This document shows, piece by piece, positions 284-63,861 of a DNA stretch of 64,000 bases. The DNA lies in assembly GCA_038087875.1 (NCBI GenBank), contig CM075993.1:7814001-7878000 (forward strand). Direction: 5' to 3'. Position numbers and translations under genes: made by a program. The notes under the pieces were generated by a model, which was given only the letters and a program-made list of their open reading frames with translations, was not told the origin of the DNA and did no database searches. Positions within the stretch are counted from its first letter, which is position 1; each line of letters begins with the position of its first letter. The stretch is from Malacoraja senta (lineage: Eukaryota).

Positions 284-447
284 AGAAGGAACTGCAGATG
301 CTGGTTTAAACCAAAGATAGACACAAAATTCTGGAGTAACTCAGCGGGACAGGCAGCATCTCTGGAGAGAACGAATGGGTAACGTTATGGGTCTCGACAG
401 CACTGATGCTGCCTGTCCCGCTGAGTTCCTCCGGCATTTTGTGTCTA
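284..447. mobile_element. Fold-back Penelope terminal-repeat mini-insertion
   Basis: Inverted arms; 14-bp TSD tattaggaatgtca (270-283 and 448-461). Confidence 0.8.
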
Positions 448-769
448 TATTAGGAATGTCACTCAGCTTCTGGAGAGCACTGAGGTGTAGCAAGTATGAC
501 TGCAGAGAGCACCCTCATAGCTACGTGTCCCCACACTCAACGGTGATTCCAGTACCAACATAGAAATGGATTATGTGTAGGAAAGAACTGCAGATGCTGG
601 TTTACATCGAAGGTAGACACAAACTGCTGGAGTAACTCATCGGGTCAGGCAACATCTCTGGAGAGAAGGAATGGGTAACGTTTCGGGTCGAGACCCATCT
701 TCAGACTTCTTCAGACCCATTCTCCCGTCTACCGGTCTCCCGTCTCCCGAGTGGTTGATGATTCATGTT

Positions 770-1305
770 GGGTGGGCGGCGCGACTCATGTCGCAGCGGC
801 CTCTGCAGTCCGTCTGTATTTTTAAATTTTTTTTGTCTCGTTTGAGTGTAGTTATAGTGTGTTTTTTTAACTGGGTATGTATGTGGGGGGCGGGGGGTGG
901 GGAAACTTTTAAAATCTTTTCCCTGTATGGAGGACCCGACCTTTCTCTGTCGGGTCTCCGTTGTCGTTGGGGCCTAGCACCGTGGAGAGGCCTCCAACCG
1001 GAACGACCTGGGGCTCCAGTCGCAGAGCCGGCGGACTTACTCACCATCGTGGAGCTGGCCGAGTTTGGAGCGTGGAGAGCTGCGGTGACGCGCGGCTGCG
1101 ACCCGACCCTGGAACTTCGGAGGCTCCAGCCGCAGGTCTGGTGGACGGTAACAGCGGGAGCTCGCGGGTCCCTGGTGGGAGACCGCTTTTCAGGGCTCCT
1201 GCAACGGCAACTTCTCCCGCCCGAGTTGCGGGGTTGAAGATGACCTGGAGCTGGGTCTAACATCGCCCGGCGCGGCTTTAATGGCCGCGGGACTTGCTAG
1301 CGCTA
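770..1305 (+). mobile_element. GC/CpG-rich repeat related in organisation to 28985-29868; 3' part absent
   Basis: Same order of gcct..agtc.gt, T-rich block, tatgtggggg...gggggaaa, then a CpG-rich body. Confidence 0.5.
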
Positions 1306-1348
1306 CCGGGGGAAATGGATTAAACCAGCCACCAATTGTTAGAACTTA

Positions 1349-1445
1349 GACAAAAGTGCTGGAGAAACTCAGCGGGTGCAGCAGCATCTATGGAGCGAAG
1401 GAAATAGGCAAAGCTTCGGGCCGAAACCCTTCTTCAGACTGATGG
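1349..1445 (-). mobile_element. Solo Penelope terminal repeat
   Basis: 11-bp TSD gttagaactta (1338-1348 and 1446-1456). Confidence 0.8.
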
Positions 1446-3632
1446 GTTAGAACTTATCTGTTCCAGTGTTAGACAATACAGCCAATCTGTCACTGAAAAT
1501 TAACTTTCCTCTAGAGTAGACAGATTCTCCACTTTTTCTTTTAATGGAAAATTTAAAAGAAATCTCTTTATTACTTCTGCGGTGTCCTGATTGTGGTACC
1601 TGGGTTGACATTGAATTTAATTCCAATTTGCCACTTCTCCTACGGATTGTGCAGTGCATTAATGATTCTTTAATCTGGTTATTATTATGTTCTTGGATAT
1701 TAAAAGCTGTGAAGATGGAAACGTACTGTTTGAGAGGAGACCTGACAGAAGTTGAGAGACATCTCTTCGGAGCTTTGAATATTCTGCTTAGATGATCTTC
1801 CAAGCACATATAATCCAGCATCTTCGGTATGAGGTTTACAGTGTTTAAAGGCAACAGAGAATGTCGAATTATTCCGGTTGTGGCCGCTAACCTTCCCACT
1901 TCTGACTCCTGGCATAAACGATCCCAGAGTTAGACAAAGTGCTGGAATAACTTAGCAGGTCAGGCAGCATCTCTGTAGAAAAAGGATGGGTGCCATTTTG
2001 GGTCGGGACCCTTCTTTCTGACCCAAACCTTCACCCATCCATTTTCTACAGTGATGCCGCCTGACCCCGCTGAGTTACTCCAGCCCTGTGTGTCTATGTT
2101 CGGTATGTACCAGCACCTGCAGTTCCTTCCTACACATTTCAGACCCCAGCCCTGGTTCTGGCCACAGTCTGGACGCTGGATCTGGCCGCACAACCCACTC
2201 ACGCCCGGGATCACCAGATCACGTTCAAGATCAGTGTGTGAGCCAGACGCTAAAACATCAGGAATGCTGAGCAATTGTCTGCCTGGTTATTGGGCTTTTA
2301 CTATCTGTGTACTTGCATCTGCATGCTTGTTGGCAGAACAGAGTCCGAGTTATCTGATGGAGCGGTTCACTCAGTTCATACATATAAGGAAGTGGATAGT
2401 ACGGATGTAACATCTTTTTTTAAGACCAGAGTCTATCTAAGTTTGGATGGTTTACAGTTTAGTTTTCCGTTTGGGGTATTGAGCAAGTTCCATCTGGAGA
2501 CTGGAATGACAATGGGTGGGGACTGGTTGAATCAGATTGGCCACTGTGTGCTCTCTGGGCTGCATAGACTCTCCTATTTCTCGTGAAATGTGATGTCCAC
2601 GCATGTGGAAAGACTCTGATTTATAATTAGATCAGGAAATTCCAGACAGACGATCGTGTGTTATAACATTGCTGCTGTTATCCCACACCACCAAGGCTGC
2701 CTTATATTACCAACCGCACCCGAGAGGTTGCCCAGGAACCAACTTGATTTGCGGGTCCTGGGAATATGTTTGGCAACTTGAACATTTGCCTCTCTCCCCT
2801 GCCCCTAATCATTATTCCCATTCATGGAAATTTGAGGAAGGCAATGCTTAATTGAACATGATTAATAGGGAAATAGCTTTTTACCATTTCCTCCGGTTTG
2901 TGTACCAGCACAGCTGAAGAAAGAGCCAGATGATGTCAGAGCCATTAACCCTGTCATTACCCCTTTGTTTGTCTGAATGTTTCAATGGGTCTTTCTCATG
3001 TGTACCAGCTACAGCATATTTTTATTTTCCGTACAGAACAGTAACATTCATTACCCTACATAAGTACAATCCCCAATTAAGTACAGAATGCATAGAAGCA
3101 GCCCCCTGAGTCTAAATGCAAGTGGCCAGGTTTTGTAGCTGATGTAGTCCCAGCTGTAGCTGGCCATGTTGGTCTATTGGAGCAGTCACCCCCATCCACT
3201 CGTCCCACGAACCGTTTTATCCCCCCCCTCGCCTGGCCATCTTCAACTTTCTGGATGCAAATGAGATCACCTTTTATTCTTCCATCTCTTGAGTACAGAT
3301 GTTTTTTATTTCCAAAAATAAAGTTTATTCAGAATAAAAAATATATACAAAACAAGAAGTGCTCAAACAGGTTTCCAGCATTCTCAGCATCGCCACGTTC
3401 GTTAGTGTCATAATTGATAGTGTTGGTAAACTCTCCCTAAACCAAGTACCCTTGCCCCTCATGTGTCCCCACTGGGGTGATATCCCTTCCCTTGTTTGTG
3501 GAGTTTCCCCAACGGACTCTGCCCCTCAATGTCCTGCAGCACGAGGGCTCGAGTCAATCTCGGGATATATCCTTGCCCTAGGATCATTGATGCCCTGTAG
3601 CTCTGACTCCTGAAGGGGGGGCGGGGGGAATT

Positions 3633-3943
3633 GCACAGTCCTGCAGTGGTAGAGTTGCTGCCCTACAGCGCCAGAGACCAAGGTTCGATGCTGACTACGG
3701 GTGCTGTCTGTGCAGAGTTTGCACGTTCTCACTGTGACCGTGCGGGTTTTCTCTGGGTGCTCCGGTTTCCTCCCACATTACAAAGGCGTGCAGGTTTGTA
3801 TGTTAATTTGCTTCTGTAAATTGCCCCTAGTGTGTAGGATGCAAAACTGGGATATCATAGAACTAGCATACAGGTGATCGGAATGGACATGATGGGCCAA
3901 AGGGCCTTTCCCCCCGCATTGTATCTCTAAACTAAACTAAACT
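3633..3943 (+). mobile_element. tRNA-derived SINE (HE1/V-SINE-like)
   Basis: A/B-box-like head (gcagtggtagag, ggttcgatgc), conserved core ggtttcctcccaca, CR1-like tail and (taaac)n. Confidence 0.85.
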
Positions 3944-6201
3944 CTTTTCATCCGGAGCCGTAAGAAATGTCTTCAGTATTTACTGGGCCTTCCTCAACTC
4001 CCCCAATTGTGACATACTCAAAACAAATCTTGCATTTGCTCTTTTCCCTTTGAAAAACTTTGCTGACTGTCTAATTGTTATAAAAAGTTTGTTGTTGGGT
4101 CCTCAATGATGGATTTCAACATTTAGATGACAAACAAAACTCTTAATAACTCTCCAAGTTCTTGCTCTTTCTTTTTTGTTAATTGCTTGTTTCCGAAAAT
4201 CTGAAGTCTAAAGGTGATGAATCCTAAAATTTAAAACTCGTTTAAATAGAGTGTTAGTTATATAGCACATAAATAGGCCCCTTGGCGTACTTTGTGCTTG
4301 CTTACCCAGTTGGCCTATTGGGCTAGTGCCATTTGCCTGCATTTGGCCTATGGTAGCTTACTAAAGCTTTCCTATCCATATATCTGTCCAAATGCCTTTT
4401 AAAAGTCGTATATGTATCTGCTTCTATAGCTTATTCCAGATACAGATGACCCTCGGAGTGAAAAGGTTGCCCCTGAGGTCCCTCATAAATTTCTCACCTT
4501 TCACCTATGTCCTTTAGTTTTAGAATCCTCTACCCTTGGGGATAAAAATATTGTGTGTTTTCACTTTATCCATGCCCCTCATGATCTTATTCACCTGAAT
4601 AATGTCACCCCCCTCACCTTTTAAGCCTTCTAACCAACAAAAGTGTCCCAGCCTATTCAGCCTCTCCCTAACTCAAGCCAGCAAGCCCACATAACATTGC
4701 TGGATTTTGTGTAGGACAAGACTGAACAAAATGAATTTGGCTTAATACTAATTTTTAAATTATGGCTTGTAATCTCTAAGGTCTAGCCAATATTTATCCT
4801 CCAATGTACAACACTAAAACAGATTGTCCAGTCATTATTGCAAATTGCTGTTTGTGGAACCTTTCCATATGAAAATCTGCTCTTTTTCCAACACAATAAT
4901 GTGATTTCACTTCAGAAGCGATCATTGCTGCATGATACTCTGGCCGTAAGCTCCATTGGATTAGATATTGCATGCAAATCATTTCCAAAGAACACCAAAA
5001 GAGATGACTGAGCAAGGCAATAATGGGCGACACAAGAGATCACAGATGCTGGTATCTTGCGCAAAAACCCCCAAAACTGCTGGATGAACAGTGGGACAGG
5101 CAACATCCGTGGAGGGAAATTCAATGATATTTGGGGTAGGGACCCTTCTTCAGGCTGGGTGATTTTTTTTGTACACATTAATGGTCACACCATGTTTTAT
5201 GAAGGAACTGCAGATGCTGGGTGAAACCAAAGATAGGCACACAATGCTGGAGTAACAGCATCTCTGCAGAGAAGGAATGGGTGACGTTTCGGGTCAATAC
5301 CCTTTTTCAGACTGGTTCTTCAGAATGGTTGCACCACAATGGGATGAAGGTAACAATCTGGTGAAGATGGCAGTGCATTCAGTTATACATTGAAGGCTGC
5401 TACTGGTTTGGTTTCTTTATACTCTACTTATTTTACTCTCATGTATTCCTTAATATCAAGAAACTGAAGGGAGACAAATGGCTGATAAGACTCACTGAAG
5501 ATGTTTGAAACAGTGACAAAGCACAATTGACCCTGGCGGAAATAGGTTGAAGGTGCTCGTTTGAGGAAAAAGCCTTTCACCTTTCACCTATGTCCTTTCT
5601 TTGAGCAAGAAGGAAATGTGTTATAACTAGGTGGAAAGGATGGATAGATAAGCCTAACATTAGAGTGGCAACGTGTAGAAGACACAAAGCGCTGGAGTAA
5701 CTCAGCGGGTCAGGCAGCATCTCTGGAGATCATGGATAGGTGATGTGTCAAGTTGACTTCCCTTTTCAGACTCCATTCACCCATTCATGTTTTCCATAGA
5801 TGCTGCCTGACCTGCTGAGTGCTGTCTTTTGCAGTGATATCTATGCGCTGCTTCAAATAAGAATTTCATTGTTCAGTTTCAGGACATATGACAATGGAAC
5901 ACTCTTGACTCTCTTGTCTATTAGCCACAAGGAGAGGTTGGAGAAACTTGAATTGTTTTTGCTAAAATGCTAGGAGTTGAGGGGACACCTGATAAAAGGA
6001 TATAACATTTGCGAGAGGCATTAGGTAGGTTAGACGGTCAGAACTTTATTCCAAGGGTGGAAATGTTAAAGACTAGAGGGCACAGCTTTAAGATGATAGG
6101 GGCAAAGTTTTAAAAAAAATGAGTGGGGCAAGTTATTTTACAGAGGGTGGCGAGTGCCAGGAGCGCTCTGTCAGGGGTGGTGGTAGAGGCAGATATGGTA
6201 C

Positions 6202-6415
6202 TCACAAAATGCTGGAGTAACTCAGTGGAACAGGCAGCATATCTGGAGAGAAGCAATGGGTGATGTTTCGGGTCGGGACCCTTCAGTCTGAAGAAGGGTC
6301 TCCACCCGAAACATCACCAATTCTTTCTCTCCAGAGATGCTGCCTGTCCCGTTGAGTTAATCCAGCATTTTGTGTCTATCCGGTTTAAACCAGCATCTGC
6401 AGTTCCTTCCCGCAC
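6202..6415. mobile_element. Fold-back Penelope terminal-repeat insertion within an old CR1 tail (about 5925-6530)
   Basis: About 80-bp inverted arms around cttcagtctgaag. Confidence 0.8.
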
Positions 6416-7151
6416 AGGATATGATAATGGTGTTTCAAAGGCTTTTAGATAGACACATGAATATGCGTTATGTGTGGGCAGAGATTAGTTTAATCTGGCA
6501 TCGTAGGGCCTGTTCCCGAGCTGTACTTTCTGCGATGACTAGGAATCGAGGTGGCCTTGATGACTGTACCCAAGATGGTTGAAAGCATTTGGAATGGAGT
6601 CGGTCGAAGCTCTGGTTACAATTTCTATACCTTAGCAGAGGCCCCACAGACAGGAGAGCAGGCATCGTATAAACAAAATCCCTGCTCGGTAAAGAGAGTG
6701 TGATTAGCCTTCATCTGCAGACTTGTTTTTCTTGTTTGAAAGCTGTGGGCACCCTCACAGGAACCATCGCTTTGTGATCCAATTTAATAAGTATTTAGAA
6801 ATCCGATGGTTAATTACAGTCAGAAGTATGGAATAGGACTAAGCTAATTTTGATTATTCTTAAATTTCAATTCTTGTAATCACCATGTTTTTTATTGCTA
6901 TGGTTCACCAGAACATAGAATGTTTCTTAGCAAAGCTGGTAATAAAATACCGCAGTTAAAGCAAATGCACTGAAGCATATTACACATGCCTGCATGTGGT
7001 AATGCACTCAGGGAAATTATAGTTTCAACTGAAGACAATGCTTGTGGTTGTGTGGAATTGTAGTCAGACATGGTCAGATTTAGCATTGAGCATTATTTGT
7101 GAGCACGTTGGCTAGTGGCTTCCAGCAGATACAGTTTTCATTCAACATGGA

Positions 7152-7365
7152 TGTGCAGGAAGGAACTGCTGATGTTGGTTTAAACCGAAGATCGACACAA
7201 AATGCTGGAGTAACTCAGCGGGACAGGCAGCATCTCTGGTGAGAAGGAATGGGTGACGTTTCAGGACGAGTCTGAAGAAGGGTCTCGACCCGAAAGGTCA
7301 CCCATTCCTTCTCTCCACAGATGCTTCCGGCCCCACTGAGTTACTCCAGTATTTTGTGTCTTATC
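7152..7365. mobile_element. Fold-back Penelope terminal-repeat insertion
   Basis: 15-bp TSD ttcattcaac[a/g]tgga (7137-7151 and 7366-7380). Confidence 0.8.
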
Positions 7366-7636
7366 TTCATTCAACGTGGAAATCCCTACGTTGCTTTTCT
7401 GCGGTGCTGGCTTATTTTTAAGCACCAACTAAACTGAAAATGCCTGTCAAGCTGCACTATTAAATAAATTAAATGGCATGAAGTTCCTGTGGTCATCGTG
7501 GATGTGCACTAATATCACAAATTGGTAGGGCTTATCTATTGCAATTTTGCAATTATTAAATCATAATTATAACCAGCTATCCGTTTCATACTTAAGATTG
7601 ATCTTGACAGATGTCAAGTCTAATTTCCATATCTCT

Positions 7637-8005
7637 TAGAGTCATAGAATCATAGTGTAGAAACAGGCCCTTCGGCCCAACGTGTCCACACCGACCAACA
7701 TGTCCCATCTACATTAGTCCTACTTGCCTGACTTTGGTCCATATCCCTCCAAACCTATCCTATCCATGTACCTGTCTTATTGCTTCTTAAACGTTGCGAT
7801 AAACTTCTTGAACTGCCTCAACTACCTCCTCCGGCAGCTTGTTCCATACACCCCCAACCCCGTTGTGTGAAAAGGTTACCCCTCAGATTCCCATTAAATC
7901 TTTCCCCTTCACCTTCAACCTATGCCCTCTGCTTCTCGAATCCCATACTCTGGGCACCTCTGTAAGAGCACCCCGCATCCTCCTGCACTCCAGGGAATAG
8001 AGTCC
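7637..8005 (-). mobile_element. CR1 LINE 3' end (second subfamily; similar copies at about 4250-4690 and 37715-38120)
   Basis: agagtcata tail and ggcccttcggccc hairpin shared with the SINE tails. Confidence 0.75.
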
Positions 8006-8529
8006 CTTGTAAATCTTCTCTGTTGAGAATTTTTCTAAAACTGTTAAAAAAAAAATTGTCCTTATCCCATCTTTAAGTTCCTATCCCAATTTACATTGAA
8101 TTCTGTCGAACATAAATTTCCTTGTTCAGCCGTTGCGATGCTTGTAATGATTCATTAAATTAGACACACCAATCTTGCAGCTCAGGTTCTGTGAGGTTAT
8201 CCTATTTTGGGTACTTGTATGAAGGTAAACTGCTGTGCAAAGTTGCATGACTAATTATATAAACTTAAGCCCCTATTGTGTAGATAGATATGTTGGTCCA
8301 TTGGGTGGTAGTGAATGTGGAAATGTAATTGGTATCTAGAAATACTAAATATCTGAAGTCCTGACTTTGTGATGGAGGGTGAGTCATTGACGAAGCAGTT
8401 AATGGTTGGAGCTAGAACACTTTCCCAAGGAAGTTCTGTTGTCTGGGCTGTTTTGTCATTCAATGTGCACTGTCCTTCTGAACCTTCTGAATTTTGTAGT
8501 CGGCAGGGCAGTACCTTGCATATTGCCAA

Positions 8530-8740
8530 CTTGGACAATTTTTACATTTAACCTACAAAGCCAATTAACCTACAAACCTTTGGAGTGTGGGAGGAAACTG
8601 AAGATCTCGGAGAAAACCCACGCAGATCACGGGGAGAACGTACAAAATCCATACAGACAGCACCCGTGGTCGGGATCGAACCCGGGTCTCTGGCGCTGCA
8701 TTTTGCTGTAAGGCAGCAACTCTACCGCTGCGCACCGTGC
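8530..8740 (-). mobile_element. tRNA SINE (HE1-like), partial
   Basis: Reverse complement of the same family. Confidence 0.8.
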
Positions 8741-9012
8741 TCTATCAGTGGAAGAAGGTGGGTGGGTGTACAGCTGTAATTGTTGCCTGGACGTTTTGTA
8801 TGTTCTTTGCTGGATGGAATCAGAATTGTCACAGAGGTGTCTTTTTGGCATTGCTGACCTAGGTACCTATCTACGCTAATCCCATTTCCCTGCATTAGGC
8901 CCATATACCTCTACCCTTTGACAATGAAAGTCCCCATCCAAATGCTTTTCAAATGCTGCAATTGTATTTGCCTCTACCATTACTGCGGGCAGCTCATTCC
9001 ATATACTCTCCA

Positions 9013-9757
9013 GGCCAAGGTGGGAAAAGGGGAAGTACAACGAGATCTGGGGGTCTTTGTTCATCTGTCACTGAAAGTAAGCATGCAGGTACAGCAGGCA
9101 GTGAAGAAAGCGAATGGCATGTTGGCCTTCATAACAAGAGGAGTTGAGTATAGGAGCAAAGAGGTTCTTTTGAAGTTGTACAGGGCCCTAGTGAGACCAC
9201 ACTTGGAGTATTGTGTGCAGTTTTGGTCTCCAAATTTGAGGAACGACATTCTTGCTATTGAGGGTGTGCAGCGTAGGTTCACGAGGTTAATTCCCAGGAT
9301 GGCGGGACTGTCATGTTGATAGATTGGAGCGGCTGGGCTTGTATACTCTGGAATTTAGAAGGATGAGAGGGTATCTTATTGAAACATATAAGATTATTAA
9401 GGGATTGGCCACGCTAGAGGCAGGATACATGTTCCTAATGTTGGTGGAGTCCAGAACCAGGGGCCACAGTTTAAGATTAAGGGGTAGGCCATTTAGAACG
9501 TAGATAAGGAAAAACTTTTTCACCCAGAGAGTTGTGAATCTGTGTAATTCTCTGCCTCAGAAGGCAGTGGAGGCCAATTTTCTGGATGCTTTCAAGAGAG
9601 ATAGAGCTCTTAAAGATAGAGCTCTTAGATAGAGCTCTTAAAGATAGCGGAGTCAGGGGATATGGCGAGAAGGCAGGAACGGGGTACTGATTGTGGATGA
9701 TCACATTAAATGGCTCGAGAGGCCGAAATGCCTACTTCTGCACCTATTGCCTATTGT
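9013..9757 (+). mobile_element. CR1 LINE 3' fragment (RT C-terminus), nested in an older minus-strand CR1 (about 8855-10400)
   Basis: RDLGVFV..SLK.SMQVQQAVKKANGMLAFI.RG.EYRSKEV...LYRALVRPHLEYCVQFWSP; contains stops and a triplicated gatagagctctta. Confidence 0.9.
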
Positions 9758-10847
9758 CCCCTCCTCTCACTTTAAACTGATGTCCTCCAGTTCTAGACTC
9801 CACTGTCCAAGGATAAAGACTCTATTACATATCCTAATTTTATATTATAATTCTATGAACATCTATAATGTCAGCCCACAGCCTCCTATGTTCCAGTGAG
9901 AATAAACCAAGCCTCTTCAATCTCTCCTAACTACAGGCCTCCACTCCAGCTCACATCGCGGGGGATCTCTATGCACGGCCCATTGCTACCACATCCTTTC
10001 TGCAGCGTGAGAAGTCGAACAGTAAATAATACTTCAAGTGCGGTCTAACCAACGTTTTTTACAACTGAAACATGAGGTTTTGTGCTCAACACCTCAGCCT
10101 TTGAAGGCAAGCATTCCGAATAGCCTCTTCAATACCCAATCCACCTGTGTCGCCACTTTCAGGGAGTTATTGACTTGCATTGCAAGGTCTCTCAACATCA
10201 ATGCTCCTGAGGTCCATATAATTCACTCTCTTATTAAAATGTGACTTTCCAAAGTACATTACCTTTCACTTGCCTTGATTAAATCCCATTTGTCATTACT
10301 CTGTCCATCTTCCTGGTTGCACTATGTCCTACTGTGTCCTTGGACATACCTCTTCACTGTCAGTGGCTCCACTCATTTTTGTGTCATCTGAAAGCTGACT
10401 GAATAGACCTGTGAATTTAGCTGGAGTGGAGGCCTGTGCTAGGATAGATTGAATAGGCTTGGTTAATTCTCACTGGAACATAGGAGGCTGCGGGCTGACA
10501 CTACAGATATTTATAGAATTATAATTCTAAATATGTAGGAAGTAACTGCAGATGCTGGTCTAAACCAAAGATTTAAAGTCTGAAGAGGGGTCTCGACCCA
10601 ATATGTCACCTATTCCTTTTCTCTAGAGATGCTGCCTGACCCGCTGAGTTACTCCAGCTGAGTTACTCTATCTTCAGATACATTCTAATCCAGGCCATTT
10701 TCTATGTGTTGCAAGCAACAATGCATCAATTCCCACGGTACACCTTTCGTTACAAAAAAAAACACCCTTCTGCTGCATCCTGCTTCCTGTCACCAAGCCA
10801 ATTATGTGTAGACATGAGGTGAGTTGTGATGTGCTTTGAATCACTTA

Positions 10848-11115
10848 TGGGCCTGTCCCACTTAAGCGACCTTTTCGGCGACTGCTGGCACCCATCATAG
10901 GTCGTCGAAAATTTTCAACATGTTGAAAATTCCGCGGCGACCAGAAAGACGCTACGACTCTTTGGGTGACTAGGTGACCTCTCACGACCATACAGGCAAC
11001 CACCTGGCGATATGCCCCCTGGTGACATGTCACCAGGTGGTCGCTTGTATAGTCGTGAGAGGTCGCCTGTATGGTCGTGAGAGGTCCCCTAGGTCGCCGC
11101 AGTGGGACAGGCCCT
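10848..11115. mobile_element. PIF/Harbinger-type MITE
   Basis: TIR gggcctgtcccact / agtgggacaggccc; TTA on both sides; internal ggtcg-rich repeats. Confidence 0.8.
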
Positions 11116-12104: not shown

Positions 12105-12396
12105 CGGGATGGTGGCGCAGCGGTAGAGTTGCTGCCTTAGAGACCCGGGGTTGATCCTGCCTACGGGTGCTGTCTGCGTGGCGTTTGTACGTTCTGCATG
12201 TGTTTTCTCCAAGATCTTCGATTGGCTCCCACACTCCAAAGATGTGCAGGTTTGTAGGTTAAATTGCTTGGTATAAATGTAAATTGTCCCTAGTGTGTGT
12301 GTGTAGATAGCGTTAATATGCGAGGATCGCTGGACGGCACGGACTCGGTGGGCTGATGGGCCTGTTTCCGTGCTGTATCTCTAAACTAAACTAAAA
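12105..12396 (+). mobile_element. tRNA SINE (HE1-like)
   Basis: tggcgcagcggtagag head, (taaac)n tail. Confidence 0.85.
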
Positions 12397-13608: not shown

Positions 13609-13900
13609 GTGCGGTGCAGTGGTAGAGCTGCTACTTCACAGCTCCAGAGACCAGGTTCGATCCTGACTGTGGATGCTATCTGTGTGGAGTTTGTACATTC
13701 TCCCTGTAATTGCGTGGGTTTCCTCCAGGTGCTCTGGTTTCCTCCCACATTCCAAAGACGTGCGGGTTTGTAGGTTAATTGGCCTCTGTAAATTGCCCCC
13801 TAGTGTGTAGAGTGGATGAGCAAGTGGGATAACATAGAACTACTGTGCGGGGTGATCGAAGGTCAGCATGGACTCGGTGGGCCGAAGGGCCTGTTTCCAC
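13609..13900 (+). mobile_element. tRNA SINE (HE1-like)
   Basis: B-box ggttcgatcc and core motif. Confidence 0.85.
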
Positions 13901-34532: not shown

Positions 34533-34549
34533 TTACTCTTAAGCTTATA

Positions 34550-49111: not shown

Positions 49112-49127
49112 TATAGTTCACAGTATG

Positions 49128-52460: not shown

Positions 52461-54054
52461 CAGTGCCCTCCATAATATTTGGGACAAAGACCCATCATTT
52501 ATTTATTTGCCTCTGTACTCCACAATTTGAGATTTGTAAGAGAAAAAAAATCATATGTGGTTAAAGTGCTCATTGTCAGATTTTAAGAAAAGGCCATTTA
52601 TATACATTTTGGTTTCACCATGTAGAAATTACAGCAGTGTTTATACATAGTCCCCCCCATTTCAAGGCACCATAATGTTTGGGACACAGCAATGTCATGT
52701 AAATGAAAGTAGTCATGTTTAGTATTTTGTTGCATATCCTTTGCATGCAATGACTGCTTGAAGTCTGCGATTCATGGACATCACCAGTTGCTGGGTGTCT
52801 TCTCTGGTGATGCTCTGCCAGGCCTGTATTGCAGCCATCTTTAGCTTATGCTTGTTTTGGGGGCTAGTCCCTTTCAGTTTTCTCTTCAGCATATAAAAGG
52901 CATACACAATTGGGTTCAGATCGAGTGATTGACTTGGCCACTCAAGAATTGACCATTTTTTAGCTTTGAAAAACTCCTTTGTTGCTTTAGCAGTATGTTT
53001 GGGATCATTGTCTTGCTGCAGAATGAACCGCCGGCCAATGAATTTTGAGGCATTTGTTTGAACTTGAGCAGATAGGATGTGTCTATACACTTCAGAATTC
53101 ATTATGCTACTATCATCAGCAGTTGTATCATCAACAAAGATAAGTGAGCCAGTACCTTCAGCAGCCATACATGCCCAGGCCATAACACCACCACCATCGT
53201 GTTTCACAGATGAGGTGGTATGCTTTGGATCTTGGGCAGTTCCTTCTCTGCTCCATACTTTGCTCTTGCCATCACTCTGATATAAGTTAATCTTCGTTTC
53301 ATCTGTCCACAAGACCTTTTTCCAGAACTGTGGTCGCTCTTTTAAGTACTTCTTGGCAAACTGTAACCCGGCCATCCTATTTTTGCGGCTAACCAGTGGT
53401 TTGCATCTTGCAGTGTAGCATCTGTATTTCTGTTCATGATGTCTTCTGCAGACAGTGGTCATTGACAAATCCACACCTGACTCCTGAAGAGTGTTTCTGT
53501 TCTGTCGGACAGGTGTTTGGGGATTTTTCTTTATTATAGAGAGAATTCTTCTGTCATCAGCTGTGGGGGTGTTCCTTGGCCTGCCAGTCCCTTTGTGATT
53601 AGTAAGCTCACCAGTGCTCTCTTTCTTCTTAATGATGTTCCAAACAGTTGATTTTGGGAAGCTTAAGGTTTGGCTGATGTCTCTAACAGTTTTATTCTTG
53701 TTTCTCAGTCTCATAATGGCTTCTTTGACTTTCATTGGCACAACTTTGGTCCTCATGTTGATAAACAGCAATAAAAGTTTCCAAAGGTGATGGAAAGACT
53801 GGAGGAAAGACGAGGTGCTGAGAGCTCTCTTATACCAGCATTAAGGAGGCAATTAAACACACCTGAGCAATTACAAACACATGTGGAGCCATGTGTCCCA
53901 AATATTATGGTGCCCTGAAATGGGTGGACTATGTATAAACACAGTTGTATTTCTGACAATGTGCACTTTAACCACATGTGATTTTTTCTATTACAAATCT
54001 CAAATTGTGTACAGAGGCAAATAAATAAATGATGGGTCTTTGTCCCAAACACTG
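52461..54054 (-). mobile_element. Full-length Tc1-family DNA transposon of IR/DR type (about 1.6 kb)
   Basis: Long inverted repeats 52461-52688 and 53892-54054 (cagtg...cactg followed by TA at 54055). The left IR has two direct repeats (cataat[a/g]tttgggaca at 52471 and 52671). Encloses a transposase ORF. Confidence 0.93.
52719..53756 (-). pseudogene. Tc1 transposase, open frame of 345 aa from ATG 53756, with catalytic Glu replaced by Val
   Basis: N-terminal HTH with GRPR motif, WTDETK (D1), QQDNDPKH (D2), and SLDLNPIV where SPDLNPIE is expected; 34 residues lie between D2 and this position. Confidence 0.88.
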
Positions 54055-55714
54055 TAGGTGGAGAAGTGCCATTCTTAGCAAAACATTCACAGTGCAGATT
54101 CTTTGTGGTTCATCGTACTTCAACTAAGCTCCTATGAATTGAATCTGGATCTGTGCAAAACTGAGTGGATGGATTGGGGAATTGCCCATTCAAGTCTGGA
54201 AACGACACTGCTTTAGGTTAAAGGACAGCAGGGTGCTGGAGTAACTCTGCAGGTCAGGTAGCATCCCTGGAGAAGTCTGAAGAAGGGTCTCGACCCAAAA
54301 CGTCATTTATTCTTTTTCTCCAAAGATGCCGTGTTCTCCCTGTGGCCGCGCGGGTTCTCTAAGGGTACTCCGGTTTCCTCCTACATTCCAAAGATTTGCA
54401 GATTAATTGGCTTCGATACAAGTTGTAAATTGTCCCTCGTGTGTCGGGTGATGTTAGTGTTCATGGTGAATGCTGGTTGGAGTGGACTCGATGGGTCAAA
54501 CGGCCTGTTTCTGCGCTGTATCTCTAAAGTCTAAATCTAGTATATGTTTGCATCCTCCAGTCATTGCATTTTGCTGCACCTTACTGTACCCAGAAGACAT
54601 TGATCAGGTACCCCAAATTTCAATCCTGCCCTGCCTTACTCTTTGACTCTTTTCTTGATATAGTAGGTTCAATATTCATTCTGAATAAACTGAATAAAGT
54701 TTTTGAATTCTTTATAACTGGGAAGGCTACTTGTATAGACTGTTGTTGCTTTTAGACATATTCAAACACACTGCAGACAGTTAGGAATGTATTTTGTAAG
54801 GGGCTGGTGTCTTGCATGGCTCCTGCATGCCTAGTCTTTCAATGAAGGCAGCTTTTGTGCAGCTTGCGCTTGGGTGGATTCAAATCAAGCAGGTTATTGA
54901 CATTGCCTTTCTCTCCAAGGGGGTAGAAGAAAAAGCTGGAAATAGCTCTGTCTGCAGGGAAGTGCAGTGAATGGCGTTACTCAGCACTGAAAATCACCCA
55001 TTCTGTACCGGTGCTGATTTGGAAATGCAGCGTGATGGGAAGTGGCAGGCGTGACCAGATCTGACGATATAGTCACTGCACGTCATTACTTTCCCTGCAG
55101 CATGGCACCTAATCACACAAGCTAATGCGGCAGATGAAATGATGTCAAGTGTTTGAAATTAGCAGGAATATACATGTCCAAGAAAGTAAGTATACAATAG
55201 AACAGGCAGCAGGCCCATTTTGAAGCCTGTCCCTTAGATTGCATCTGTGCACTGCCTCTCATGCTTCCCTGTAACTAAAGTGGGCCAGGCAGCACCTCTG
55301 GAGAACATGGATAGGCAACATTTTAGGTCTGGATCCTCCTTCAGTCTGAAGAAGGGTCCTGAAGTGAAATGTCGCCTGTCCATGTTCTCCAGAGTTGTTG
55401 CCTGACCCTCTGAATTACTCCAGCACTTTGTGTTTTACTTAATAAGCACAACACTGTCCTACATTTTGAATGCCTTGTGCTAATTTAAGACCAAATTGTA
55501 AGAGGTTTAGTTACATTGCTGTATTACTGTATCTATGCAAAGTCTCCCTGATTGAGATGTAATGTTAAACTTTTAGCATTAAATTTTAATTGGGATGCAC
55601 ATATTGCAGGAACAGTAGTAGATATTTAATCTTCGCCCCTCCAGTGCTGCAATTCTCTTATTTTAATTAATTTAAAAAGAAAATCAACTTGCCATTCTCA
55701 ATTAGGACGTGTGT

Positions 55715-55736
55715 GGGGGGGGGGGGGGGGGGGGGG
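55715..55736 (+). repeat. Poly-G run (22 nt)
   Basis: Direct reading. Confidence 0.9.
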
Positions 55737-56637
55737 TAGTAATTGGAGACTTTCTTTCATGGGCTGATAGAATCTAGTTCCGGCAAATCTCCTACTTGAT
55801 CGCTACAATTTAATGTAAATTGTTTGGAAAAATGCCCTTTATGCAGCCTTCGTGGGTTTGAAGAGAGTGAATCAGAACGTCTAATTCAATTTCCTTCATC
55901 TTAAAGCGAGCAAATTTCAGTGAGGCCTTGTTGGACATATCTAAGTCAGCACATTCCACCTGAAGAATGCGTGGAGCATTTTCTAATCATTGTGAAGAAT
56001 ATGCAGACATTTACTTTCAAGGGCAATGTAGCTTTAATTTTCTTTACATGACAAAAAAAAAATGAAGTGCCTTTGCACAAAATAATTCCCATCCGGTTCC
56101 TTAGAGGTTTAGGTGTGATGTTAACTTTCCATTTTCCAGATCAAACTAGTACTTGTTTGGAGCTGTTTAAGATAAAATGGTAGCCTTGTGAATTAATTTT
56201 TCAATTAATTAATAAGCTAATCAATCAACAAATTAATTAATAAATAAATAAATCTGCCGATCTGATTAATAAAGCCTCACCCGCTGAGTTTCTCCAGCAT
56301 TTTTGTCTACCTACGATTTTGCAGCATCTGCAGTTTTTTCCTAAACAAACTGGGAATGAATTTCTTCCCTTTTCCTCAGCCCCTTTGTTGCACCAATCTT
56401 TCCCTGTTCATTATCTACTTCAAGTTAATTATTTCTGGGTATGATTTCGCTGGCTTTCATCAGCTTCTGGACGCTACTATGCAAGCAGGTGTTTTGACAA
56501 TATAATTTAATGGAATCAATTCATTGTTCCTCTCAAGATACCCAAACGCTTGTCGGTAAAGGAGAACATAAGTGTGCTGCTATTTGGATCTGATTTCCAC
56601 TTCCTCATTCCGAAATAACAAAAGTGTAAAAAGAACA

Positions 56638-57135
56638 GGTGGCGTAGTGGTAGAGCTACTGCCTTGCAGCGCCAGAGACCCGGGTTTGATCCTGACTACG
56701 GGTGCTGTCTGTATGGAGTTTGTATGTTCTCCGCGTGGGTTTTCTCCGAGATCTTCCGTTTCCACCTACACTCCAAAGATGTACAGGTTTGTAGGTTAAT
56801 TGGCTTGATATAAATGTGCAATTGTCCCTAGTGTGTGTAGGGTAGTGTTAACGGGCAAGGATCGCTAGTCGGTGCAGACTCGGTGGGTTGAAGTGCCTGT
56901 TTCCGCGCTGCATTGACCCGTACACTAACACTATCCTACACACTAGGGACAATTTTTCTGAAGCAAATTAACCTACAAACCTGTAAGTCTTTCGAGTGTG
57001 GGAGGAAACCAGAAAACCCACGCAGTCACAGGGAGAACGTACAAACTCCGTACAGACAGCACTTGTAGTCGGATCGAACCCAGGTCTCTGGCGCTGTAAG
57101 GCAGCAACTTTACCGCTGCGCCACCGTACCGCCCT
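56638..57135. mobile_element. Two tRNA SINEs in inverted tail-to-tail arrangement
   Basis: Plus copy at about 56638-56910 and minus copy at about 56918-57135. Confidence 0.85.
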
Positions 57136-58204
57136 TAAACTTACTTAGTTGGTGATACAGCAGTAAGTGCTCAGTTGATCAAACAGCTTCTGCAGAGAAA
57201 GAAAGATGTTTCAGTTCAATGATTCCCATCAGAACCTGTAAACTACCATGGCCAGCCAGTAGTTTCTGACCCTGGTGTTTTATAGTTGCCTTCAGTGAGC
57301 TTCTGTGTTCTGTTTTCACTAATGATGGTTGGGTTCCCAGCATTAGTTAAACCTGCCAACCTGAAATGAGCCATTTATTGCAATGTTTAAGAAGGAACTG
57401 CAGATGCTGGAAAATCAAAGGTAGACAAAAATGCTGGAGAAACTCAGCGGGTGAGGCAGCATCAATGGTGCGAAGGAAATAGGCAACGTTTCGGGTCAAA
57501 ACCCTTCTTCAGACAATTATTTTCAGCTAGTCGTCAGTCATGCCAATATATCGCCCTCAGTGTCATGAGCTCTTACCATGTGCAACAAAGCAAAATAAAA
57601 TGAGAACCTTGTCCTGCTGGACAAGCTGCCAACCAAGGTTAACCTGATTTAGGTAGGAGGCAAGTAAGGCTACGGGGTCAAATATTTCAAAATGACAAGG
57701 TGTGATTTGGAATGTGTTGCCTTAAGGGGTGTTGATAGCAACTGAGATAACAACACACGGTGTGAAAATAGATAAATATTGCAGGACCGCATAAAAGAGG
57801 AAGGGAGCAGTACTGAGACGACTTGCTTTACTTAATGGTGAATAATGAACCTAATGTAGTGATATTAATACTCTTAGATCGGAAATGAGATAAAGAAGAA
57901 ACACAATGGTTATGCTCAATCACCTCTGTGTTCCCCACTCAACAGGCCTAGCTGGGATTGGCAAACTCCCATGTCCACATGCCCTCCCATCCCTTCACTG
58001 AGGTGAATGTGCAGCTCATTGCAGAAGCAAAAAAACTGTAGAGGCTGCTTTACAAAAACACACAATGTCAAAGTGACCCTTGATTAACAAATGAAATGAT
58101 TTTCAGTCAGGCAAATGGTTTTGTATGGAGACACAAGGAACTACAGATGCTGGAGTCTTGACAGAAACCCAGTGCTGGAGGGTCTTGACCTGAAACTTGA
58201 CCTT

Positions 58205-58588
58205 GGATCTTATACAAACATATAAAATTATAAAAGGACTTGGACAAGCTAGATGCAGGAAAAATGTTCCCAATGTTGGGCGAGTCCAGAACCAGGGGCC
58301 ACAGTCTTAGAATAAAGGGGAGGTCATTTAAGACTGAGGTGAGAAAAAACGTTTTCACCCAGAGAGTTGTGAATTTGTGGAATTCCCTGCCACAGAGGGC
58401 AGTGGAGGCCAAGTCACTGGATGGATTTAAGAGAGAGTTAGATAGAGCTCTAGGGGCTAGTGGAGTCAAGGGATATGGGGTGAAGGCAGGCACGGGTTAT
58501 TGATAGGGGATGATCAGCCATGATCACAATGGATAGCTGGCTCGAAGGGCCGAATGGCCTCCTCCTGCACCTATTTTCTATGTTTCTA
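58205..58588 (+). mobile_element. CR1 LINE 3' end inserted into an old Penelope terminal-repeat palindrome
   Basis: DKLDAGKMFPMLGESRTRGHSLRIKG...; the host repeat continues on both sides (58130-58200 and 58589-58650). Confidence 0.85.
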
Positions 58589-59926
58589 TGAAACATCGCC
58601 TGTCCATTCCCTCCACAGATGCTGCCTGCCTCGCCAAGTTCCTCCAGCATTTCATGTATTTATTTGAAATAGTTTTATATTCTGATACCTGATGGTGAAC
58701 CTCTCACAAGGTTTACAAAAAAAGTTACAAAGTGCTGAAGTAACTCCGTGAGGTCAAGCTGCATCCCTGGAGAACATGAAAGTGATGTTTTGGGTCGGGA
58801 CCCTTCTTGAGGCTTGGTCAGTGTAAGGCACTGGAGAGAGAAAAGCAGAGTTAAAATGTCTGGCAACAGAAATGCCCGGTTCTGATGCAGACGGATAACG
58901 CCAGTTATCTGAAGTTGGAGCGTGGGGAAGCTGGAGAAGGCGTTTCCGTGCCCAGACGGAGGGTGAGAAGCTGATCCACAGGCTTGAATTGTCTCCGTGT
59001 AGGAGGCCCTGACGGGTCAGAGTGAGATGGAGCTTTGAAGTGTAAGAAGGAACTGGAGATAGACACAAAAAGCAGGAGTAACTCAGCGGGACAGAAGGAA
59101 GGGGTGACGTTTCGGGTCGGGACACTGGGTCACTCCGCTGAGTTACTCCAGCACTTTGTGTCGACACCAGCTACTGTATCGTTTCAGCTGCTGTTCAAGT
59201 TTCATCATACTCGGCAACTTCCAGAAGTCATTATTCCTGAGTATGTACAATTCAAAAAGACGGCTTGAACAATGTAGATGGCTTCAGCTGTTGATCACTG
59301 ATTACAGTCGTGGGATTGTGTAGTTTTTAATCAAACTTTTGTGACCCACTGCATAAATGTATTACGTTTTTGGCTGTACTCCATCTTGCATCCATTGTTG
59401 ACTCTGACCAAGTGACTACAGTTCACAATGGAGGCATGTTTTCAATTTCCCGTCAAATCTTTGGTCATGGGTTTGCTACCTGTTACAATCGGAAACACCT
59501 AGCCGTGGCCTTTTGATTATCAACGTTTGATTATCAAATTAAATTATCTTCAGTCAGGCAAATAATTTTGTATGGAGACACAAGGAACTGCTGATCCTGA
59601 AGTTTTGACCAAAACTCGGTGCTGGAGGCTTTCAACCTGAAACATCACCTGTTCGTTCCCTCCATAGATGCTGCCTGACCCGCTGAGTTCCTCCACACTT
59701 TGTGTTTTTGCTTGAAATAGTTTTTGTTTCTTACCTGTTTCTGAACCCCTCTTCTGTGCCTTCATGTCCAAATACAAACACTCCTCGGTTCTCTTCCCAG
59801 CCTCTCCTTTTGCATAAACTTCAACCAGAAATCTTCTCTCTTTGTTTTGGGCAAATCATGTTCATTTGTTACTCCTCATTTTGCTACCTTAAACAGGATT
59901 CTGACCTCACAGCACCTCCATTCTAA

Positions 59927-60254
59927 TGGCCCTGTCCCACTGTACGAGTTCATTCCAAGAGCTCTCCTGAGTTTGCCCTGATTCGAACTCGGAGATTTAC
60001 AGTAATGGCCGCTCGTTGGTACTCGAGGCTCTCGTGGACATTTTCCAACGTTGAAAAATCTTCACGAGTCTTCCCGAGCTTACCTGCCGTTAGCGAGTCT
60101 TCCCGAGTACCTGCAGTTAGCGTTACGAGCCGCTAAGAGACGTCCCCGAGCTCCGACATACCCGCTACGTTCATTCTCCGTGCTTACCACAAGTTTGATT
60201 TTTTTAAAACTCTGGAGAGCTCTTGGAATGAACTCGTACCGTGGGACAGGGCCA
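59927..60254. mobile_element. Harbinger-type MITE
   Basis: 41-bp TIR tggccctgtcccac[t/g]gtacgagttcattccaagagctctcc; flanks TAA/TTA. Confidence 0.82.
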
Positions 60255-60482
60255 TTACGTTGTAATCCTTATGTTTGAATGACGCCCTGCCATTTTCAGT
60301 TTGGCTGTAGTCAAGTCACAGGAAGATTCATTCTTTCACTCTATGAGATCATTAAATACGTTCTGACACCCTAGCCACTTGTGCACGCATACTGCTTGCA
60401 ATTTAGCTTCTGTGTTGATCATATTTTTTATACATTGCCTGCAAACCACCTCTCAAGAATGAGAAAGGCACTTAAAGTAAAA

Positions 60483-60675
60483 CGGCGGTGCAGCGGTAGA
60501 GTTGCTGCCTTACAGCGCCAGAGACCCGGGTTCAATCCTGACTACGGGTGCTGTCTGTACGTAGTTTGTGACCACGTGGGTTTTCTCCGAGTGCTCTGGT
60601 GTGTATGGGGATCGCTGGTCGGCGCAGACTCAGTGGGCCGAAGGGCCTGTTTCCATGCTGTATCTCTAAACTAAA
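60483..60675 (+). mobile_element. tRNA SINE (HE1-like), internally deleted
   Basis: Family match. Confidence 0.8.
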
Positions 60676-60695
60676 GTAGATGAAAACATTAATCC

Positions 60696-61080
60696 GACAC
60701 AAAATGCTGGAGTAACTCAGCGGGTCAGGCAGCATCTCTAGAGAACATGGATAGGTGACATTTCAGGTCGGGACCCTTCTTCAGACAACCTTCTTCTGTA
60801 CGTATCCATGTTCTCTAGAGATGCTGCCTGACCCGCTGAGTTCCTCCAGTACTTTGTGTTTAAGAAGGAACTGCAGATGCTGGAAAATCGAAGGTAGACA
60901 AAAATGCTGGAGAAACTCAGCGGGTGAGGCAGCATCTATGGAGCGAAGGAAATAGGCAACGTTTCGGGTCGAGACCCTTCTTCAGACTGAAGAAGGGTTT
61001 CGGCCCGAAACGTTGCCTATTTCTTTCGCTCCATAGATGCTGCCTCACCCGCTGAGTTTCTCCGGTACTTTGTGTCTTTT
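60696..61080. mobile_element. Nested fold-back Penelope terminal-repeat elements
   Basis: Older palindrome 60696-60859 interrupted near its end by a younger palindrome 60860-61064, with TSD gtactttgtgt. Confidence 0.8.
60958..61014. ncRNA. Two back-to-back hammerhead cores, one per strand
   Basis: 60958-60985 on minus (loop II CUCG) and 60987-61014 on plus (loop II UUCG); both end GAAACGUU. Confidence 0.6.
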
Positions 61081-61199
61081 TGTGTAAAGACAGGGAGAGA
61101 GTGTGGAAACCATGCCCCAGTGGCTAGAAATAGAGCACTGCAATCGATACGCAGTTAACGGGATGCCAGCATGTTGGGGACCCTGACTATTGATTCATT

Positions 61200-61490
61200 T
61201 TTAGTTCAGAGATACAGTACAAAAACAGGCCCTTTGGCCCACCGAGGCTGTGCCGACCAGCGCTCCCCGCACACTAGCAGAATCCTATACTTTAGGGACA
61301 ATTTACAATTTTATGGAACCCAATTAACCTGTGAACCTATACGTCTTTATGGAGTGTGGGAGGAAACCGGAACACCCAGAGAAAACCCACGCAGTCACAG
61401 GGAGAACGTACAGCCAGCACCCGTAGTCAGGATTGAACCTGGGTCTCTGGTGCTGTAAGGCAGCAACTCTACCGCTGCGTCACTGTGCTG
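61200..61490 (-). mobile_element. tRNA SINE (HE1-like)
   Basis: Family match. Confidence 0.85.
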
Positions 61491-61889
61491 CTTGGTGAAG
61501 CTTTATCCCGGGTTCAGTGATCACTAGTTACTGTGGGAAGTCACTCAGTGCCTTGAGTATTGGAGATTTACTGTAGATGGAAATCTTTCTCTATTAAAGT
61601 AAAACACTGTGGATGCCGAAAATCAGCTCAATGGTACATTTGATCAATATTTGCCCGAAATTGAATTTATTTTCGTTATGCAAATCGTTATGGTAAAGAA
61701 TATGTGGCACTGGGATTGAATCTACGAGGAGAGGAAGTGTTGGATCTCGACCATCCGCTCACTTTGATTTCCTCCCAGATGCTGTGTATGAATTCCATGT
61801 GATCTGGACTTTGATAAAACCAGAAGCAATTAAATGTTGCAGGCTGGGACATAACAAAGGCAGAACTTGGATTAAACCAATTTAACTGT

Positions 61890-62178
61890 GGGCGGCATGA
61901 TGGCGCAGCGGTAGAGTTCCTGCCTTTCGGCGCCAGCGACCCGGGTTCGATCCCGTCTACGGGTGCTGTGCTGTACGTTCTCCCAGTGACCGCGTGGGTT
62001 TTCTCCGAGATCTTCGGTTTCCTCCCACACTCCAAAGACGTACAGAGTTGTAGGTTGATTGGCTTTGAGTAAATATATATTGTCCCTAGTGTGTGTAGGA
62101 TAGCGTTAATACGTGGGGATCGCCGGTTGCCGCGGACTTAGTGGGCCGAAGGGCCTGTTTCCGCGCCAACTAAACTAA
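61890..62178 (+). mobile_element. tRNA SINE (HE1-like)
   Basis: Family match with intact B-box ggttcgatcc. Confidence 0.85.
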
Positions 62179-63037
62179 TTTAGTGAAAAGTTGTATTTGC
62201 GCGAAGAGTCAGGCCAAATGGAGTAGAAGCCCACTGGAGTCCCAGACAGGCCCAGAAGGGACAAATTATTGACCTATTTTCAGTGATAAGGCCATTGTGA
62301 ACTCATTGTGCCCATTCCAATTTCACAGAGTTGCGCATTAATTCTGAGAGTTGCACCAGAAAGAATGTACACGGATAAAGGCAGACAGACCGTCTTGGTG
62401 TGAAGCGGAGCTGTGAATGCCTTGCTGGTCTATATTTAATTTGAAACATCTTCAAGCTGTCCAAAATGTGCAATAGTGCAGATTGTCCTGAAGGAAAAGA
62501 TGGCAATGCCAAATAAAATGAGTGCAAGGTTGTTTTAAAACTGAACTTCTTTACTCAAGTGGTAAATTTGGAACGCATGGGATTGAAAATAAAAGTACTT
62601 TAATATCTTAAGAATTGGGTCAGGTGCTATACTGGAAGATAAAAGCCAGCCACGGGATGACATATGAATGCTGACACATCGTCTTGTGGTATTGATCAGT
62701 TCGGAGGCCGGTCTTGGTTGGACCATTACATGGACACCTCACTTGTGGTCCACGACAGCAAGTTTCAATTCCTGTTGCACACCAGTTGTAGGCACGGATC
62801 ACTGTGGGCTCCCATTGAGTTGTAGTGTTAAGATGCTGCACGGTGGAGTAACTCAACCTTTGATGCAAGTTAATGCCTTAATAGTTAAGAAAATGTGGAA
62901 GTTCAATCATAGAAGTTGTTTTCCAGTACTGACACTAACGTCAAAGCATCAATTGAATGGACTTTGCATTTCCTTTGGGGACCACTAAGATATATGTTGT
63001 GTTCTTGCTTAGTTTAATGCATGAATGAATGAAGGAA

Positions 63038-63290
63038 AGATACAGCATGGAAACAGACCTTCTGGGGACCACGCCGACTATAGACCACGAGTCCTGTGTT
63101 GTCCCACTTTCGGATCCGTTCCTTGCACACCAGGGGCAATTTAGAGGCCAATTAACCTCCAAATCCACACGTCTTTGGGATGTGGGAGAAAATCCAAAGG
63201 GAGAACGTGCAAACTCTGCACAGACAGCACCCAAGGCCAGGATTAAACCCGGGTTTCTGGTGTTGTGAGGCAGCTGCTCCACTGTGCCAC
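63038..63290 (-). mobile_element. tRNA SINE (older subfamily)
   Basis: Diverged family match. Confidence 0.7.
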
Positions 63291-63861
63291 AGAATTTAGA
63301 GTGGTGAGAATGGTCCATTATTGCTGGCTTTGTCAGGCCAGTTGGATTCCAGCTGTGATATTCATGGCGCTAACTCTACAGTGTTGCGGCACTCATGAAT
63401 TTGGTCTTGCACCATCGTATGATAGTGCTCTCATAAAATTAATTAGGATAAAGATTGGGAAAGATGATTTAGTGAGCATGCACTTTGAACAGTGTCATTG
63501 TTTGAGGTAGTGGAAGGCTGTGCAGAGTGACGTGATGGGTTGCAAGTGAACAATAATTAGTTGTCTGGTCACTCCATTCAGTGCTTGAAACCATAGCTCA
63601 GACAGTGTTTCAGTGCCTTCCCTTCCCAAAAGTTTTAAAAAATGAAGATAGACACAAAAAGCTGGAGTAACCCAGCGGGTCAGATAGAAACATCATCTAT
63701 TCCTTTTCTTCAGAGATGCTGTCTGACCCGCTGAGTTACTCCAGCTTTTTGTGTCTATATCTTTAGTGTAAAGCAGCATCTGCAATTCCTTCCTACACAG
63801 TAAAAAAACAAGAACTATAAATCAAAAGCTGGCTGTTAACCCAACGAGAGATGTGCACGAC

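Follow-up and report, generated by a model that had tools for sequence, protein, structure and literature searches.

The window analysed here is a stretch of 64,000 nucleotides from Malacoraja senta (assembly GCA_038087875.1, contig CM075993.1, forward-strand positions 7,814,001 to 7,878,000), and it lies in the first three introns of a plus-strand SNX27-like gene whose closest proteins come from rays and skates. Two exons lie inside it, one of PDZ/PX sequence (35309..35542, +) and one of PX sequence (39045..39236, +); since exon 1 lies upstream and the next exon downstream, all the rest is intronic. The introns are crowded with copies of a short unit from a Penelope-like element (PLE) with a hammerhead ribozyme motif. 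Our preferred explanation, to which we give a rough probability of 0.58, is that each of these repeats is a separate insertion of the first 98 or 131 nt of a Neptune-type Penelope, made by a reverse transcriptase (RT) that starts in the mRNA leader and runs off the 5' end.

The Repeat Family in the Window and the Genome

A profile built from five natural copies finds 82 unit pieces in the window, spanning 282..63798 (44 minus, 38 plus); these give 59 loci once pieces no more than 40 nt apart are merged—about one locus per 1.1 kb—and the same profile has no match in five resampled control windows. An earlier interpretation from the letters alone (the sequence-only reading) had described such a dense recurring unit in the SNX27 introns, with loop and closing pair varying between subfamilies, and both descriptions stand. 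The hammerhead motif that it reported is also present, but of the 62 well-aligned pieces in the window just 36 cover it from end to end; many pieces begin within the motif, and core, helix II and the palindromic ACGU are all intact in 10 of those 36.

We number the unit from the A of AGTCTGAAG as +1, with 0 for the preceding base and the predicted cut after +31. In the reference unit (48147..48243, -) +1 is the A of AGTCTG at 48243, the hammerhead core runs from 48240, and the predicted cut falls between 48213 and 48212. Solo units with a tail are found at 32699..32831 (-; -1..+132, 14-bp duplication) and 26755..26885 (-; +1..+132, 10-bp duplication), both with an intact motif, the second with 7 extra bases like an inverted tail end. 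Short solos lie at 1347..1444 (-; -3..+94, 11-bp duplication) and, within an older copy, at 25705..25802 (+; 9-bp duplication). The CUCG-loop subfamily, the most abundant, is represented by a solo at 23336..23460 (-) with an intact motif, and the CCCG-loop subfamily by one at 22135..22260 (+).

Over the whole genome, one 28-nt motif pattern has 54,342 exact matches, while its reversed control has none. We sampled the 21 largest contigs with 48 segments of 10 kb, placed at round coordinates, in which 279 pieces make up 5.4% of bases; at 11.7%, the window has only about twice the sample density. The repeat is genome-wide, and targeting specific to SNX27 is rejected. Extrapolated from this sample, which is small and not strictly random, the family is estimated at 0.7–1.1 million pieces.

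The Parent Element

At 48149..49111 (-) lies a young, 5'-truncated copy of a Neptune-type Penelope, consisting of the end of an open reading frame (ORF), a 110-nt pyrimidine-rich 3' untranslated region (UTR), and the unit up to its first 3' site (+97). The sequence-only reading had tied the unit to Penelope as the 3' end of this GIY-YIG piece; the tie is confirmed. A 12-bp duplication flanks the copy (48137-48148 and 49112-49123), which is identical to the full-length element L046 at 961 of 966 positions. The ORF end (48357..49111, -) encodes a CX4CxxC linker and a GIY-YIG endonuclease (EN; Pfam E=2.4e-4, below the curated cut-off), and the genome holds at least 150 matches with 100% identity to this protein sequence.

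Full-length elements run from unit and tail through an ATG near +167, a single 1,212-aa ORF and the 110-nt pyrimidine UTR to another unit, the unit being both terminal repeat (pseudo-long terminal repeat, pLTR) and 5' leader of the RT/GIY-YIG ORF. A link to full-length PLEs in the genome had been set beforehand as a test that could refute the earlier idea, and these unit–ORF–unit copies provide it. The 1,212-aa protein matches RVT_1 (E=6e-6) and, at its C-terminus, GIY-YIG (E=1e-3), both below curated cut-offs; it has 1,709 homologs at E<=1e-20, and its closest named homologs are from sharks and rays (65-73%). Between RT and EN stands a CX2-5CxxC finger motif (CNRKRCNTC at 1079), the layout of Neptune and Nematis (PMC8557442), and the host range suggests Neptune rather than Nematis. 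Other traits of EN-bearing PLEs are found as well: partial tandems forming pLTRs, inverted 5' copies, and an optional tail of 30-40 bp. Older subfamilies have different UTRs, yet there too GIY-YIG ends lie upstream of the unit; with GIY-YIG-linked copies in every subfamily, the label "non-autonomous" in the sequence-only reading is not needed.

We also record several features of the element in their own right. The N-terminal half of its protein has a long, proline-rich repetitive insert (residues 160-480), ORF length differs between copies (1,224-1,302 codons stop to stop), and a splice-donor-like AG|GTATG overlaps the ORF start codon (L047:2557-2565). A predicted fold of the young family pairs +5..+13 by 9 bp with the end of the tail, at the second proposed start site (L046:2839-2847 with 2956-2964); this pairing is weaker in older subfamilies.

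A 5' Cliff and Two 3' Sites

For the analysis of copy ends we took 559 pieces in 744 kb, aligned 551, and kept 425 (by score, not at an edge, and with a 3' end beyond +60). On the 5' side, the ends of 168 of the 239 pieces at risk fall within -4..+5, a loss of 11.4% per nt, compared with 3.0% at +6..15, 0.36% at +33..+60, 1.05% at -30..-5, and 0.41% at -59..-31. This cliff falls at an initiator-like TCAGTC, ~31 nt upstream of the predicted cut, and ends in the cut-site zone itself (+29..+33) are at background, with 5 of 230 non-fold-back pieces. Duplications of at least 8 nt flank 32 of 189 solos (control 2.6), and 26 of these 32 end at -4..+5; together with 91 singletons that share no upstream sequence, they show that the cliff is not an artefact of missing upstream references. 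The youngest family has a weaker cliff—exact matches number 9,383 for +30..62, 6,596 for +3..34, and 3,765 for -6..34, a loss of up to 43% across nine bases (6,596 to 3,765)—and 15 of 38 copies in a hand-checked young set end there. The earlier phrase "extreme 5' truncations" misses the sharpness of the boundary (11% per nt at -4..+5 vs 0.4-1% either side).

The 3' ends are bimodal: 189 of 425 lie at +88..106 (short), 177 at +118 or more (tail), and 59 elsewhere, on alignment yardsticks that stopped at +133. The two sites are +98 and +131, with young copies ending at +131/132; in two other organisms, loose contig ends fall at +1, +97, and +132.

A cliff of this kind might be produced by ordinary 5' truncation with a hot spot, the RT stalling, or the cDNA being cut or joined, at the palindrome TCAG-N-CTGA on long read-through RNAs with no promoter involved. 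The palindrome lies exactly at the cliff, fold-back joints favour palindromes (peaks at -1, +12, and +14), and PLEs regularly show both 5' truncation and inverted pLTRs (PMC8557442). We nevertheless consider a hot spot unlikely: the cliff remains without fold-backs (113 of 180 pieces), target duplications are unlike the palindrome, and the six full-length copies whose upstream unit is complete all pass the upstream site, which means that the palindrome does not stop most passages on those RNAs.

The boundary might also be a 3' splice site, with its pyrimidine tract and CAG present in every subfamily and a precedent in the Drosophila Penelope, where an intron ends at helix I (PMC4209133). A splice acceptor would leave an upstream exon attached, but no such exon appears: among 117 solos there is no upstream 10-mer that matches donor-adjacent parent sequence (the upstream letter tallies, biased by loci chosen for G, were used for this exon test only), the 91 singletons have no common upstream sequence, and duplications abut the unit. 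No splice into +3 is found among the contig joints listed, which are joints of contigs rather than RNA ends, and we regard a splice origin as very improbable.

Head-to-Head Pairs

Fold-backs account for 172 of the 425 pieces, and inverted pairs are almost always joined at their 5' ends—72 head-to-head pairs against 4 tail-to-tail. In 25 of the 72 a duplication of at least 8 nt surrounds the whole pair (control 1.5). The two arms follow a rule: 50 of 57 classifiable pairs combine one short and one tail arm (P=4e-9), as do all five classifiable pairs among the young ORF-bearing ones (a sixth is unclassifiable), and the short arm reaches further 5' in 28 pairs vs 11 (P=0.009). The arms also resemble each other, agreeing in loop type in 30 of 30 pairs and in the cut base in 46 of 48, and 13 rare variants are common to both arms, where controls have a mean of 4.3 and a maximum of 10.

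Examples in the window are the pair at 36122..36307, whose tail and short arms are joined in helix II, share one variant base, and are enclosed in a 17-bp duplication, and the pair at 7155..7368, which has a tail arm, a short arm reaching +1, and a 10-bp duplication. A third, at 60857..61077, falls outside the pair filter; its tail and short arms meet at the TCAG-N-CTGA palindrome. From these patterns we infer that each event yields two cDNAs, one per start site and strand and often from one RNA, the rear displacing the front. Two points weigh against this: the agreement in loop type may owe something to different periods of activity of the subfamilies, and the arms of the pair at 60857..61077 have different loops, so this pair needs two templates.

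Promoter-Like Signals and a Proposed Mechanism

The cliff coincides with sequences that resemble a core promoter for RNA polymerase II (Pol II). Among 12 natural long copies, the initiator (Inr) TCAGTY is matched 6/6 in nine (background 6e-4), the motif ten element (MTE) CGANC at +18..22 is matched 5/5 in six and 4/5 in the others, and the downstream promoter element (DPE) at +28..32 is matched 4/5 in 11, all three at canonical spacing from +1 (consensus from PMC5580651). The D. virilis Penelope has a TATA-less internal pLTR promoter with Inr and DPE (PMC2377424). At seven loci an ORF-start fragment is followed within 18 nt by a new unit from +1 or 0, three times via an A-run, and these chimeras resemble products of an RT that ran off its template at +1 and then switched to a second short transcript at its 3' end. 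One copy with its start at +1 extends into the ORF by more than 800 nt. Fragments at L153, L162, and L176 stop near +284-287, and an A-run and then a further unit come next; this is possibly an early poly(A) site.

Several findings weigh against a start at +1, for which the support comes from DNA sequence. The MTE and DPE consensus is that of Drosophila and the match is partly forced by the ribozyme sequence; the young family matches the MTE at only 4/5; and TCAGT is absent from the corresponding place in all 21 invertebrate relatives. The search for a cap-derived G gives a mixed picture: a G precedes +1 in 2,072 of 5,162 cases (40% vs 28% expected), yet G is common before +2 too, and exactly one extra G follows the duplication in only 2 of 30 G-preceded loci. 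The 5' boundary is spread over ~10 nt with a shoulder to +15, and the six full-length copies with a complete upstream unit all extend past +1. Finally, the anole element that serves as our model for priming is a Poseidon, from a different clade than the Neptune-type family here.

With these reservations, we propose the following mechanism for leader copying. Pol II would start at +1 under the control of a promoter inside the element, with initiator and downstream motifs that share sequence with the hammerhead, and +98 and +131 would be two internal RT start sites, as in the anole element. A dimeric enzyme would nick both target strands and prime one cDNA per site, the template usually being a single RNA or RNAs from a common source. 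Joining of the two cDNA ends by microhomology would give a pair, and loss of one would give a solo. The ribozyme would be mostly folded off and cut rarely. Solos are likely dead by-products, because they are without the downstream sequence that the anole enzyme needs.

If solos were instead a self-propagating family like short interspersed nuclear elements (SINEs), each would carry promoter and RT start sites, be transcribed into its flank, and be copied in trans. Numbers speak for this, with 361 solos and pairs to 64 long copies. In rotifers, sequences flanked by pLTRs can be moved in trans (PMC3846280), and after internal priming no remnant of the source flank would be expected. Set against it are the ORF-linked copies in all subfamilies, the need of the anole enzyme for RNA well downstream of the start sites, which solos are without, and the just 514 exact matches that enter the ORF vs 9,383 for the unit body. 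We think such a family improbable, more so than a truncation hot spot.

Extending leader copying beyond this genome, we tentatively suggest that in rays and sharks the Penelope hammerhead may double as a Pol II core promoter, helix I having been traded for the initiator. Priming in the element's own leader from two sites on opposite strands might then have produced a million leader copies, ~5% of the genome—SINE scale without a non-autonomous master—and a record of how inverted pLTRs and one-sided tails arise. This wider proposal seems to us somewhat less probable than its negation.

The Hammerhead Ribozyme

All subfamilies and 13 relatives share a minimal type I hammerhead, with invariant core CUGANGA, GAAA, and UH, the pair G10.1-C11.1, an extra base, and a palindromic ACGU; the relatives were picked by a descriptor that requires these very features. 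The 80 metagenome loci of relatives yield 22 minimal hammerheads on the coding strand (some near-duplicates) and 1 on the other, and 20 shuffles yield none. Across 16 aligned motifs the core alone is invariant. Helices I and II covary in the relatives (93% paired, 49 double changes, 0/500 shuffles), and helix I, which the search did not demand, does so in 4/4 pairs. An invariant core with covarying helices makes the motif a genuine feature of the clade, as published for PLE hammerheads (PMC4209133).

The sequence-only reading thus fares well on the motif itself: the minimal hammerhead with extra A and ACGU palindrome is borne out in the clade, and its caveat of a 2-bp helix I holds for this genome's copies, where helix II is 4 bp and a helix I of 4-5 bp is not seen. 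Its proposed checks gave a mixed outcome. Both helices covary in the invertebrate relatives, while within this genome the only change is a one-sided U-A/U-G in helix II; the 3' flank and the motif are about equally conserved between subfamilies; and an Rfam search returns no hammerhead among 18 matches at E<=1. The microRNA and plastid matches in that search were rejected as fold-back hairpins below gathering scores.

Thermodynamic folding gives no support for a hammerhead as monomer or dimer, with helix II probability at or below 0.05 in all six natural copies folded and a rival hairpin 4-7 kcal/mol lower. An intact motif is kept in 54 of 205 sampled copies, many losses falling at CpG sites. 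The hammerhead is unlikely to cut host pre-mRNA much.

These folding results, the background level of ends at the cut site, and the dispersed copies starting ~31 nt upstream of the cut and ending at +98/+131 all contradict the suggestion in the sequence-only reading that the units are ribozyme-delimited RNAs, here taken as retrozyme-like monomers or circles freed by self-cleavage. A minority does fit: two of six tandem arrays (11 x 138 bp and 4 x 165 bp) restart at the first base after the cut, four other arrays have an intact motif in each unit, apparent starts number 406 at +32 vs 253 at +35, and jumps back to +32 number 4/30 vs 0/30 (P=0.11). The arrays, starts, and jumps at +32 hint at rare cleavage. 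For the bulk of copies, ribozyme-defined 5' ends are refuted, and we hold self-cleavage to be a highly improbable origin of the family.

The 138- and 165-bp arrays are at L110 (G000:C1:27817314-27818850) and L186; L110 ends at the tail site, as expected from rolling reverse transcription of a small circle. The other four (L121, L183, L184, and L185; 254-384 bp) have a full hammerhead per unit and are retrozyme-like, with dimers possible in principle.

Other Features of the Window

An open 373-aa Tc1/mariner transposase frame with helix-turn-helix and DDE domains lies at 52719-53840 (-). A second abundant short repeat family is interspersed with the units (49130-49450 and many other places), as are fragments that we take to be CR1/L2-like RT sequence.

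Comparison with Known Systems

PLE hammerheads, solos, tails, and inverted pLTRs are already known, and an overlap of promoter and ribozyme has a trypanosome precedent. In the literature searched, with subscription papers and Repbase lying outside the search, we found no account of this ray family, its 5' cliff, or its paired-end rule. For the way in which Penelope elements form tandem or inverted ends and a one-sided tail, published explanations appeal to self-priming on an antisense template or to resolution by an endonuclease; the cliff and the one-short-one-tail rule turn this question into direct tests in an existing in vitro system, and would explain why full-length offspring come from tandem copies only. 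Making up ~5% of the genome and lying mostly within introns, on either strand, such copies are also a large source of predicted double-stranded RNA, and of possible cryptic promoters, in cartilaginous fishes.

Published PLE hammerheads are type I with an extra base between A9 and G10.1 and a loopless palindromic helix III, as here; they have been seen in Neptune and Poseidon elements of fish, and most are scattered one by one and attributed to PLEs that were truncated. They differ in having a helix I of 4-5 bp and a helix II of 7-8 bp (schistosome) where this family has 2 and 4 bp, in numbering 4,000-9,000 per vertebrate genome as opposed to 54,342 matches to a single pattern, and in that the available portions of the published account describe no fixed 5' boundary. 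Published inverted pLTRs and one-sided tails (PMC8557442, PMC3846280) are likewise head-to-head, with palindromic joints and 8-10 bp duplications; those descriptions are qualitative and invoke antisense self-priming (proposed for one-sided tails and head-to-head joints in PMC3846280) or endonuclease resolution, whereas the counts here point to two-site priming on opposite strands.

The closest experimental system is the anole Poseidon PAc (Frangieh 2024, PMC11167929), which has an optional 30-40 bp tail, as here, and two adjacent internal RT starts, as we propose for this family; both target strands are nicked and extended, uncleaved RNA is the template, and the ribozyme needs protein. Its ORF starts in helix II, whereas the ORF here starts ~167 nt downstream, and its main text reports neither a 5' pile-up nor a one-short-one-tail rule.

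Non-LTR retrozymes (PMC7229834; bioRxiv 10.64898/2026.07.22.740005) are also PLE-derived, with a type I hammerhead and dispersed monomers, and one chondrichthyan was sampled. They are defined by tandem arrays with a hammerhead in consecutive units, an arrangement found in four arrays elsewhere in this genome but in no window copy; window copies are solo, inverted, or ORF-linked, and bounded by RT signals rather than by the cut site.

For a sequence that is both promoter and ribozyme, the parallel is Pr77/L1TcRz of trypanosomatid retrotransposons (PMC8190864), where one short sequence at the 5' end serves as an internal promoter at the DNA level and as a ribozyme once transcribed. That ribozyme is like that of hepatitis delta virus, cuts upstream of +1, and sets the 5' end, while for the present family both the cut at +31 and the promoter are predictions. 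In the D. virilis Penelope (PMC2377424) an intron separates the hammerhead from the start site, whereas in the family described here the two are predicted to overlap.

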